From Candidatus Poribacteria bacterium (GTDB taxonomy: Bacteria; Poribacteria; WGA-4E; PCPOR2b): a stretch of DNA of 64,000 bases. Below are positions 1-2,373 of this stretch, in pieces. A model generated the notes under the pieces. That model made no database searches, was not told where the DNA came from, and saw only the letters and a program-made list of their open reading frames with translations. The number at the start of each line of letters is the position of its first letter. The stretch's first letter is position 1. Location: positions 4,576,001-4,640,000 of the forward strand of contig OZ242351.1 of the NCBI GenBank assembly GCA_965208675.1, in the 5' to 3' direction. Made by a program: the position numbers and the translations under genes.

Positions 1-1299
1 CGAAACGTGACCCTAAGCGAGCATGAGGGGAGGGAGAACGTCGTCCTAGTCTTTTACCGAGGGCAGTGGTGACCGTCCTGTATTGACCAGCTCGTCGAGC
101 TGCAGCCGCATTACACCCGCGTTCGCGAACTCGGCGCCGAGATGTATGCCATCAGCGTGGACAAACACGCCGACTCGATACGCGTGCTCGTGCAAGGGAA
201 TAACAGACACAATACTAAAGTGACGTTTCCTATCCTATCAGATTCAAATCCAGTTCTGGCGACCATAAAAAAATATGGCGTGAAGGATAGAATCTCGCCA
301 TTCGCCAGACCGGCTACTTTCGTTGTCGATAGGGATGGAATTATTCAATGGCACGACGTCGGAACACACAAGGATGACCGCGCATTTGCTCAGGAAATTC
401 TCCCCGTTCTCGAAGACCTCAGCGAACCGCCGAACACGCCGCCCGAGATATTCGGAACGATTCCGGATCTCTATGTACAATCCGATCAACAGCCAGAAGA
501 CTTCGATCTGTCCGAATTCGCGTACGATAAGGAGGACTCGCAGGGCAGCCTGCGCTGGGAAGTGGAGCCAACGAAAACCGAATATTTTACCGCTGAAATC
601 AACGGCCATCAGCTCACAATCACGCCGTTCCCGGACGAATACGGTGAGAGAAGCATTACATTGAGGCTTTTTGATTCCGGCGGTGACATGGATTCGCAAT
701 CGCTGTTCGTCACGGTCATCCCGGCGCCGAATTTTCAGAAAACGATTCGCTTGGTCGTCCGCGGCGGGTTAAACCTGATTCACCTTCCAATCGGCGTGAA
801 CATCGTTAATGGCGCACCGGGAACTATCACCCGAATCAGCGAACTCTACGACGTGCTCGGCGGATCGGAAAATGTCCACTGGCTGGTAACCAGTTCCCCG
901 GATGTGCCGGGCGGGGTGAATGAGTTGAAACCGTATTTCGGCGGTGCCAACGATTCAATTATTGAAGCCGAAACCGGCGTCCTCGCCGCACTGCGAGAGC
1001 CGAGAACGCTGCACCTTGTCGGAACGCTGCTCAATGCGCCGCTTCCCCTCAATCCGGGTTGGAATATCGTCGGTGTGCCGCATTACGACAGCGGTATTTT
1101 ACTTCTCAGCGACGTCGCGGGAATAGATGTTATTCAAGGCAACGCCTCCCAAATTGCCGTATTCGAAGATGGTAAATTTTTTGCGAATGCGCCAAGCGGC
1201 ATTATTAAAAGCACCCAGTCCGATAGGAGATTAGAAACGGGGCAGGCGATCCTGATTGAAATGACGGGCGCCGCAACCATACCGTTGCCGTTGAAATAA
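1..1299 (+). CDS. Probable selenoprotein (5' truncated): AhpC/TSA peroxiredoxin-like redoxin domain with UxxC motif, fused to an Ig/cadherin-like domain and a C-terminal beta domain
   Basis: Frame 1 from base 1 reads RNVTLSEHEGRENVVLVFYRGQW*PSCIDQLVELQPHYTRVRELGAEMYAISVD and continues in frame into ORF 142..1299. The TGA (70-72) occupies the first Cys position of the FYRGxWCPxC redoxin motif. Downstream redoxin motifs FPILSD and RPATFVVDRDG; NTPPEI...DLSEFAYDKED suggests an Ig/cadherin-like domain. Confidence 0.8.
70..105 (+). promoter_or_regulatory. Putative bacterial SECIS element following the UGA codon
   Basis: Perfect stem CAGCTC (88-93) / GAGCTG (97-102) with G-led apical loop GTC about 21 nt after the TGA, matching the known bacterial SECIS geometry. 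Confidence 0.6.
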
Positions 1300-1341: not shown

Positions 1342-2373
1342 ATGAACCCAACCCACATCTCAAGCACTATTCGCCAGGGCGTATCGGGCGGCGTTTTCCC
1401 CGGCGCGGTGGCTTACATCGTCGAAGGCGGAAACCTATCCTATTATGAAGCCTTCGGGAACCGTATGATCGAACCGGATGTTAAACCGATGCACCGCGGC
1501 ACAATCTTCGATATCGCGTCGCTCACAAAACCCATCGTCATCTCGTCGCTCGCCCTGCGCCTCGTCGAGTCCGGCGATATCCATCTGCGCGCCCCCGTCC
1601 GAGACTGCCTCCCCGAATTTTCGCATCCGGAGGTGACGGTTCACCACCTGCTGACCCACTCCTCCGGGCTGCCGGCGTGGCGGTCGCTGTATCTGGAAAC
1701 CGAATCGAAAGAGGGCGTCGTTGAACATCTGGGGCAGATGCCGCTGGAGCAGCCGCCCGGCGAAAGAGTCGAATACAGTTGCCTCGGCTATATCCTGCTC
1801 GGCGTGCTCATTGAACGCGCCGTGGGAAAACCGCTCGACCGCCTGGCTGGCGAACAGATTTTTCAGCCGCTGCAAATGTCCAAAACGCGGTATAATCCGC
1901 CGGAATCGTGGAGGGACAGTATCGCCGCAACGGAGGATTCGAACAGCTTCGAAAAACGCATGGCCGACCATCGCCGCTACGATTGGCGGGAAGGGGTGAA
2001 CGTTGGCGCGGTGCACGACGAGAATGCCCATTATCTCGGCGGCGTGTCGGGAAACGCGGGCTTATTTTCTACCGCTGAGGACGTTTCGAAATATTGCCGC
2101 ATGATGATTGGCGGCGGAGACGGGGTGTTGACGGAGAATGACGTGGCGCAGATGGCGGCTAATCAAACGAAGGGGTTAAACGAATCGCGCAGCGTGGGTT
2201 GGATTATCTTGGAGGACGGCTCGCTCTACCACACCGGTTTCACCGGCACTTCCATCTTAATCAACTTGAAAAGCAGGTCATTTGCCGTTTTGTTGACGAA
2301 CCGCGTTCACCCGAGCGCATTCGGTCCTAGCATGGTCGAATTTCGCGCCAAATTTCATCAGGAAATTTTTTGA
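1342..2373 (+). CDS. Serine hydrolase, beta-lactamase family (AmiE-like muramoyl-peptide amidase candidate)
   Basis: FDIASLTK (SxxK), HLLTHSSG, YSCLGY, VHDENA, GLFST and HTGFTG motifs; close to namZ and anmK. Confidence 0.85.
   Translation: MNPTHISSTIRQGVSGGVFPGAVAYIVEGGNLSYYEAFGNRMIEPDVKPMHRGTIFDIASLTKPIVISSLALRLVESGDIHLRAPVRDCLPEFSHPEVTVHHLLTHSSGLPAWRSLYLETESKEGVVEHLGQMPLEQPPGERVEYSCLGYILLGVLIERAVGKPLDRLAGEQIFQPLQMSKTRYNPPESWRDSIAATEDSNSFEKRMADHRRYDWREGVNVGAVHDENAHYLGGVSGNAGLFSTAEDVSKYCRMMIGGGDGVLTENDVAQMAANQTKGLNESRSVGWIILEDGSLYHTGFTGTSILINLKSRSFAVLLTNRVHPSAFGPSMVEFRAKFHQEIF

Follow-up and report, generated by a model that had tools for sequence, protein, structure and literature searches.

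We analyzed a 64,000-nucleotide (nt) stretch of the genome of a Candidatus Poribacteria bacterium (the window: positions 4576001-4640000, forward strand, of contig OZ242351.1, assembly GCA_965208675.1, a single-contig genome of 4.89 Mb). Its first 1299 nt very probably belong to a real selenoprotein gene, in which an in-frame TGA codon encodes selenocysteine (Sec, U). Our best explanation, which we consider likely as a whole, is that the 482-aa product is an exported Sec-containing thiol-disulfide oxidoreductase of the cell envelope that is positioned by its C-terminal module. Recoding of this kind and the redoxin family were known before; the exported modular architecture is new and is part of a phylum-wide expansion.

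Reading Frame and Extent of the Gene

Frame +1 is open from position 1 of the window to a TAA stop codon at 1297-1299, except for a single TGA at 70-72, which lies in the context FYRGQW-TGA-PSC (ttt tac cga ggg cag tgg TGA ccg tcc tgt). The list of open reading frames (ORFs) obtained with translation table 11 gives just 142..1299 (385 aa), starting at an internal ATG (142..144, + strand) that corresponds to M98 of the full product and is the start chosen by table-11 callers. A preliminary description of this DNA had pointed out that the same frame runs back to base 1 through this one TGA, as the translation bore out, and had suggested extending the sequence in the 5' direction. The true start of the gene was found 150 nt upstream of the window, and the extension (contig 4575851-4576000, + strand) brought in the first 50 codons with the ATG, a ribosome-binding site (GGAGG, 6 nt before the ATG) and a signal peptide. 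When UGA is read as Sec, the full product has 482 aa, of which codons 51-482 and the TAA lie in the window (1..1299, + strand); orthologues align over residues 1-482 and contain one TGA each.

The hydrophobic N-terminus (MKTHCRISFAIIVAFICSALIGIEFASA, followed by DHD) looks like a cleavable export signal of the Sec type, spanning residues 1-28 with a predicted cut after ASA. This shape is kept in orthologues of four further genomes, the N-terminus being conserved in five full-length orthologues, and the signal peptide is the only low-confidence stretch of the AlphaFold model. A lipoprotein reading was dropped for this protein, which has no lipobox and whose orthologues do not have the Cys. U74 and C77 are the sole redox-active residues of the mature protein, which contains no other Cys.

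Nature of the Redoxin Domain

Residues 38-167, encoded from upstream of the window to position 351 (1..351 in the window, + strand), form an AhpC/TSA redoxin of the thioredoxin fold, as indicated by Pfam (PF00578, AhpC-TSA, 98.7 bits vs. a cut-off of 26, E 3.1e-28), by structure modeling and by phmmer. The AlphaFold 2 (AF2) model, with a mean predicted local distance difference test (pLDDT) score of 83, matched Bcp4, AhpE, and AhpC in Foldseek (E about 1e-11), and the best phmmer match in the PDB was Mycobacterium tuberculosis AhpE (E 2.5e-14). Since these best sequence and structure matches are all peroxiredoxins, the protein might be a true Sec peroxidase, that is, a periplasmic peroxiredoxin that acts on H2O2 or organic hydroperoxides and owes a higher reactivity to Sec. 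Weak NCBIfam matches to AhpC, PrxU, and PrxQ point in the same direction, as does C77 (TGT codon, 79..81, + strand), the second redox residue of the UxxC motif, which is invariant in 33 family instances and aligns with the active-site Cys of AhpE (the Cys of FTGIC, which we take to be the peroxidatic one). Selenols also react fast with peroxides, as in glutathione peroxidase (GPx).

However, the same alignment shows replacements at three of the four positions that make up the peroxiredoxin catalytic set: R70 stands at the column of the Pro (seven before the Cys), U74 at that of the Thr (three before the Cys), and P154 at that of Arg116, whose position was fixed by comparing the R116A entry 4xih with the wild type. 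P154 is nearly invariant in the family, and its neighbor is R, K, or I. Because the peroxiredoxin catalytic set is lost, the protein is not a canonical peroxiredoxin. The NCBIfam peroxiredoxin scores were far under their cut-offs (e.g., 47 vs. 272), and P154 together with UxxC is a thioredoxin-like combination. ResA and DsbE were matched as well in the PDB search (E 6e-9 to 1.5e-8), and two further NCBIfam models scored below cut-off, namely ResA (NF002854, at the level of the ResA subfamily; 57.8 vs. 170, E 1e-15) and the SelL-related redox protein (NF040769; 37.7 vs. 120). Moreover, the part of the Sargasso Sea selenoproteome study available to us keeps UxxC proteins of the AhpC/TSA family apart from Sec-peroxiredoxins of the TxxU type (PMC1088965). 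A role as a Sec peroxidase is thus unlikely in our view, and the redoxin motif, judged by its sequence, is a thioredoxin-like one with Sec at the position of the nucleophile.

Conservation of the TGA Codon and Sec/Cys Alternation

The TGA codon (70..72, + strand) encodes U74, which is residue 24 of the part translated from the window and the first position of U-P-S-C, and falls in a column that is shared with the homologues. Fifty-one of 61 related genomes contained a match at E <= 1e-20, and each match spanning residue 74, among the matches listed, was interrupted by a TGA in frame. Rows that lack a stop cover residues 229-478 only. Within 30 fetched loci, [W/F]-U-[P/G]-x-C was observed at this one column in 33 instances. 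Across the phylum, the redoxin domain was matched in 167 of 176 Poribacteria genomes (1-6 matches per matching genome), with a TGA in all but three rows among the matches listed, beyond which the survey comprised a further 373 rows. These three rows, which encode Cys, are paralogues from a single, 61%-complete genome (G075). More distant homologues (P0023-P0028) read WCP[YF]C, with Cys at the column of U74, and the Sec/Cys alternation that the preliminary description had proposed to look for was therefore found in both groups.

Near-identical DNA was present in sponge-metagenome contigs, and at 70-72 the contigs of two other studies agree with the window, differing from it only at 48, 96, and further on. 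Among the sequencing runs listed for this stretch, none was recorded as RNA. Our search of genome contigs retrieved one true relative, a Candidatus Poribacteria metagenome-assembled genome (MAG), which is the closest named relative, in addition to a weak Synergistaceae fragment.

These data bear on the possibility that the TGA is a real stop codon or a sequencing or assembly error, which would leave either a pseudogene or a 73-aa peptide followed by a 385-aa protein translated from the ATG at 142. The table-11 ORF 142-1299 agrees with such a reading, public databases hold shortened forms only, and TGA is a normal stop codon in this genome. However, all 33 instances and almost every listed match of the phylum keep the TGA at this column, the part encoded before the TGA is conserved in orthologues, and the contigs of the two other studies retain the TGA, which argues against the sequencing error that the preliminary description had named as a way to be wrong. 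A split at this point would also sever the redoxin fold between the active-site helix and the rest, no Shine-Dalgarno-like sequence precedes the ATG at 142, and a complete Sec machinery is present (see below). This reading is close to refuted, and we give it a very small probability.

The shortened database entries reflect how the gene has been called. All 20 close homologues in the protein collection (285-397 aa, 58-83% query cover) start at or after the internal Met M98, and are thus truncated as had been foreseen for standard gene callers. Public listings therefore show this gene and its relatives only as N-terminally shortened proteins without the active site, and dozens of Poribacteria genomes are affected.

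A Conserved SECIS-like Hairpin Downstream of the TGA

A hairpin resembling a bacterial selenocysteine insertion sequence (SECIS) is located at 88..102 (+ strand). Its 6-bp stem is the perfect inverted repeat CAGCTC (88-93)/GAGCTG (97-102), closed by the loop GTC (GUC in the RNA, 94-96); it begins 15 nt after the TGA, and the G that leads the loop lies 21 nt after it. This element, already noted in the preliminary description, proved to be conserved and covarying across relatives. It belongs to the minimum free energy fold of the region, and RNAalifold applied to 31 sequences returned this helix and no other.

Each of the 31 distinct 60-nt fragments contains CARCTC-NNN-GAGYTG, beginning 15 nt after its TGA. 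In the 4.89-Mb genome, the full pattern TGA-N15-CARCTC-NNN-GAGYTG has a single occurrence, which is this site, and the hairpin motif by itself has four. The uniqueness of the TGA-hairpin pattern in the genome and its recurrence in 31 distinct homologous sequences place the hairpin beyond chance. Stem cells were paired in 94.5% of cases, vs. 20-48% when the partner was slid by 1-3 columns. The third stem pair was AU in 27 sequences, GC in two, and GU in two, and an outer seventh pair was GC in 16, UA in three, and unpaired in 12. The observed covariation score was reached by none of 500 shuffles; as the sequences are related, these covariation figures are supportive and do not amount to proof.

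The coding context was also considered. Changes in the stem fall at synonymous sites (CAG/CAA and CTG/TTG), the Leu codon, although six-fold degenerate, is CTC in 31 of 31 sequences, and all 31 have a G within the first two positions of the loop, even though the amino acid encoded there varies among V, G, and R. The hairpin was present in none of the three poribacterial Cys forms, one of which encodes QLEELQ.

Selenocysteine Machinery and Genetic Code

The genome contains all the genes expected for Sec incorporation (selA, selB, selC, and selD), as the preliminary description had proposed to verify. tRNA-SeC, selA (595.6 bits), and selB (367.5 bits) are clustered at 2.131-2.135 Mb; selD was matched with 375.8 bits and itself has one in-frame TGA; the matches for selA, selB, and selD all exceed curated cut-offs. 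TGA terminates 404 of 1217 long frames in the genome and is thus an ordinary stop codon, which excludes a reassigned genetic code. The only tRNA found with the anticodon UCA was typed as tRNA-SeC.

Read-through of UGA74 without selenium, by a near-cognate Trp or Cys tRNA or a suppressor with the hairpin merely slowing the ribosome, could appeal to the small size of the hairpin, to its having no Rfam match, and to Sec insertion being deduced here, but it can hardly be credited, since the sole anticodon-UCA tRNA is tRNA-SeC, UGA replaces a redox-active Cys in the classic Sec/Cys pattern, and recoding of this kind is also seen in the selD gene of this genome.

The genome as a whole appears to be rich in selenoproteins. 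The selD gene (contig 4649539-4650462, - strand) lies about 9.5 kb past the end of the window and reads TVKCAG-TGA-ASKLDPGD, with a weak predicted hairpin downstream (-10.3 kcal/mol). Three other genes of the thioredoxin fold also contain an in-frame TGA, located at the redox motif: one at contig 150196-150663 (+ strand) reads FFRGTW-U-PNS (UxxS) and has a weak hairpin, another at 4351412-4351765 (+ strand) reads FWTTS-U-GPC (TlpA-like) and has a 7-bp hairpin, and the third, at 1465040-1464684 (- strand), reads FYPKDFTSG-U (the TxxU type of peroxiredoxins) and has a long hairpin.

Ig-like Spacer and C-Terminal Module

The redoxin is followed by an immunoglobulin (Ig)-like spacer at residues ~196-290 (436..720, + strand), which is free of Cys and forms a seven-strand beta-sandwich in the AF2 model. 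Big_9 (PF17963) scored 15.1 bits in this protein, vs. a gathering threshold of 23.6 (E 0.043), and was matched at E <= 0.01 by 18 of 23 aligned family members (best 1e-6), in keeping with the Ig-like nature claimed for this region.

Residues 291-482 (721..1296, + strand) form a 192-aa, Cys-free C-terminal module that has no Pfam family. AF2 modeled it as a two-lobed, beta-rich structure with a pLDDT of 91.1. VIA-align against known structures gave a best Z of 4.2, which is the level of a common arrangement, and the ESM Atlas returned unnamed clusters only, at 0.94. When the module was used in a HMMER search of 1.84 billion representative sequences, 269 matches were obtained at E <= 1e-3 and 144 at E <= 1e-10, mostly to proteins of 500-4437 aa. 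Ten of 12 matches scanned were large proteins, with domains such as leucine-rich repeats (LRR), cadherin, Big_1, and LDL-receptor-B. FlgD_ig or Por_Secre_tail was matched at the C-terminal end in eight of the 10, and in those eight the module starts ~360-410 aa before the C-terminus. The genome studied here encodes four paralogues of the module, three of which end in a tail like that of the type IX secretion system (T9SS) and none of which has a redoxin.

The module was found in 61 of 176 Poribacteria genomes, using a search model whose flanking columns inflate the E-values to some extent; a single genome can hold as many as 15 scored copies. It was present in 27 of 28 genomes of family f1, in all genomes of f3 (11/11), f4 (7/7), and f8 (8/8), and in nearly all genomes of f5. 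The C-terminal domain, called lineage-specific in the preliminary description, is lineage-enriched. Family f2 stands apart: the module is scarce there (3/112 genomes), yet the Sec-redoxin is kept in 112 of 112.

Proposed Mode of Action

The TGA column, the hairpin, the Sec machinery, and the domain matches together support the view that a Sec redoxin is fused to Ig-like and C-terminal domains. The claim that this architecture is unusual stood in part: the combination of extra domains is new, but the redoxin belongs to a selenoprotein family that is already described (in the portions of PMC1088965 and PMC2398784 consulted), which makes the protein less unusual than first thought.

According to the explanation that we favor, the Sec-type signal peptide would take the protein across the inner membrane and would be cut after ASA, leaving a mature form composed of the redoxin (U-P-S-C), the Big_9-type spacer, and the two-lobed, beta-rich module. 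During translation, SelB and Sec-tRNA(Sec) would bind the hairpin 88-102 and deliver Sec at UGA74. The selenolate of U74, in the place of the CxxC nucleophile, may attack a disulfide of the substrate or another oxidized sulfur or selenium species, and C77 would resolve the adduct as a selenenylsulfide. Re-reduction might come from the cytoplasm, for example via a DsbD-type membrane protein, and a DsbD_TM protein is encoded elsewhere in the genome. The Ig-like spacer and the module could position or tether the enzyme at structures or ligands used by the large, module-bearing surface proteins.

Several observations weigh against this explanation. The stem has only 6-7 pairs and a 3-nt loop, and the folding energy of 67-130 was no better than that of shuffled sequences (z = -0.42), so that thermodynamics alone gives the hairpin no support. 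Double changes were seen at two pairs only, a count matched by 66 of 500 shuffles, and an Rfam scan of 1-1500 at E <= 10 yielded two chance snoRNA matches and no relevant family. The peptide QLxELQ occurs in Cys homologues as well, and protein constraint therefore accounts for part of the conservation of the hairpin sequence. One homologue (L026:1693-1752, from G055, an 88%-complete MAG) has a TAA at the Gln codon of the stem, downstream of the Sec TGA, and is either a pseudogene or the product of a sequence or assembly error. The module had no clear structural relative, with no Foldseek match in the PDB at E <= 0.001. Neither Por_Secre_tail nor FlgD_ig was found in this protein by Pfam at E <= 1, and there is no lipobox either; nothing thus indicates that the protein leaves the periplasm, and the surface display suggested in the preliminary description is unproven, the T9SS-like tail of the module-sharing relatives being absent here. 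No link to redox chemistry is apparent from the neighboring genes, whose products are CstA, a hydrolase of the beta-lactamase family, and an amino-acid permease. Finally, we infer the actual insertion of Sec at UGA74, as we do the cleavage of the signal peptide, the substrate, the reductant, and the location of the enzyme.

Architectures of the Family and Gene Neighborhood

Related loci encode Sec-redoxins in several other arrangements. In four of them (L029, L030, L075, and L077), a lipoprotein signal and beta-sandwich repeats are combined with a Sec-redoxin at the C-terminus. The 982-aa product of L076 (493-3438, G097) is of the lipoprotein type; four nearly identical repeats, each ~190 aa long, precede its C-terminal Sec-redoxin, in which U is residue 874. 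L020 and L021 have a signal peptide, one or two tandem Sec-redoxins, and the module, and L078 contains plain tandem genes with a Sec-redoxin. At L021:1450-3081 (G036) and at L022 (G053), two tandem Sec-redoxins are found per frame, each with its own TGA and hairpin, and are followed by the module; the products would be exported proteins with two selenocysteines.

A gene for a beta-lactamase-family serine hydrolase of 343 aa (1342..2373, + strand; PF00144, E 1.7e-57) begins 42 nt past the stop codon of the selenoprotein gene; its product has an S-L-T-K motif and no obvious signal peptide. Our scan for promoters and terminators found none, including no terminator-like site between these two genes. 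A hydrolase gene lies downstream of the selenoprotein gene in seven of 10 loci tested, across two poribacterial families; of the other three, one was too short to tell and two were of another architecture. The Sec-redoxin and hydrolase genes thus appear to form a conserved pair, with no obvious connection between their functions.

Novelty and Possible Significance

We found no description of this protein in the literature on Poribacteria and selenocysteine, although an earlier listing in the GOS supplement or in the BSepDB data is possible; the text of the BSepDB paper contains no mention of Poribacter, AhpC, peroxiredoxin, or fusion. Exported Sec-redoxins are nearly universal (167/176 genomes) and multi-copy in this uncultivated, sponge-dominant phylum, and some forms share their module with giant LRR/cadherin proteins that are thought to mediate interaction with the host.

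It is conceivable, though we consider it doubtful, that Poribacteria, and perhaps sponge symbionts broadly, keep a family of envelope- or surface-tethered selenoenzymes, equipped with lipoprotein anchors, Ig-like stalks, or a docking module in common with giant adhesin-like, eukaryote-like proteins, for extracytoplasmic redox chemistry in the sponge mesohyl. If this were true, tethered Sec-redoxins could handle host-derived oxidants, or disulfides of the host matrix or of symbiont surface proteins. It would also give a concrete reason for the enrichment of selA and selB in sponge-symbiont bins described in the consulted part of Slaby et al. 2017 (PMC5649159), for which the Sec-redoxin family is a candidate explanation. 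The phylum-wide distribution of Sec-redoxins, and the module that some of them share with giant proteins, link the enrichment of Sec machinery in sponge symbionts with the abundance of eukaryote-like surface proteins and provide candidate genes.

Comparison with Known Systems

The fold of the redoxin is matched by AhpE (1xxu, 4x0x) and by archaeal and bacterial Bcp/PrxQ peroxiredoxins, with template modeling (TM) scores to the target of 0.85-0.91, and C77 occupies the active-site Cys column. AhpE differs in having Pro, Thr, and Arg where R70, U74, and P154 are found here. It is a cytoplasmic, single-domain protein and is not known to contain Sec.

The extracytoplasmic thiol-disulfide oxidoreductases ResA, TlpA, and DsbE (CcmG) are similar in that they are exported, have the thioredoxin fold, contain W-C-x-x-C, and place a Pro ahead of the beta-strand adjacent to the active site. 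These single-domain proteins rely on Cys, are reduced via membrane proteins of the CcdA/DsbD type, and are found in settings of cytochrome c maturation. In contrast, the scores obtained here were far below the cut-offs of these families, and the gene neighborhood is not one of cytochrome c maturation.

The eukaryote-like surface proteins of Poribacteria have the 192-aa module in common with the selenoprotein, which differs from them in having neither repeats nor a sorting tail and in carrying the module as its last domain. As far as the consulted sections of Kamke et al. 2014 go, poribacterial eukaryote-like proteins carry a Por-type sorting domain, and Por secretion genes were not found (PMC3909097).

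The closest system is the 'Prx-like' family of UxxC selenoproteins, of which, on the basis of its sequence, the protein is a member. Protein and family share the PF00578 domain, a thioredoxin-like UxxC that opens with Sec, homologues with Cys, and, just past the UGA, a hairpin whose loop contains a G. The excerpts of earlier surveys available to us describe it as the 'Prx-like protein' of the Sargasso Sea selenoproteome (PMC1088965), as 'Prx-like 1' (pfam00578, UxxC, 225 sequences) in Table 2 of the GOS study (PMC2398784), and as 'Prx-like thiol:disulfide oxidoreductase' (PF00578; UxxC, UxxU) in a table of a 2026 review (PMC13188914), and the family is also found in the tables of a 2006 genome survey (PMC1794560). 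The GOS study further mentions, in the part consulted, selenoproteins of the Trx fold fused to unknown domains, which may include the present architecture (PMC2398784). This protein differs in adding a signal peptide, a Big_9-type domain, and a 192-aa module without a named family, and in Poribacteria the redoxin is found in several modular architectures, with 1-6 matches per genome.

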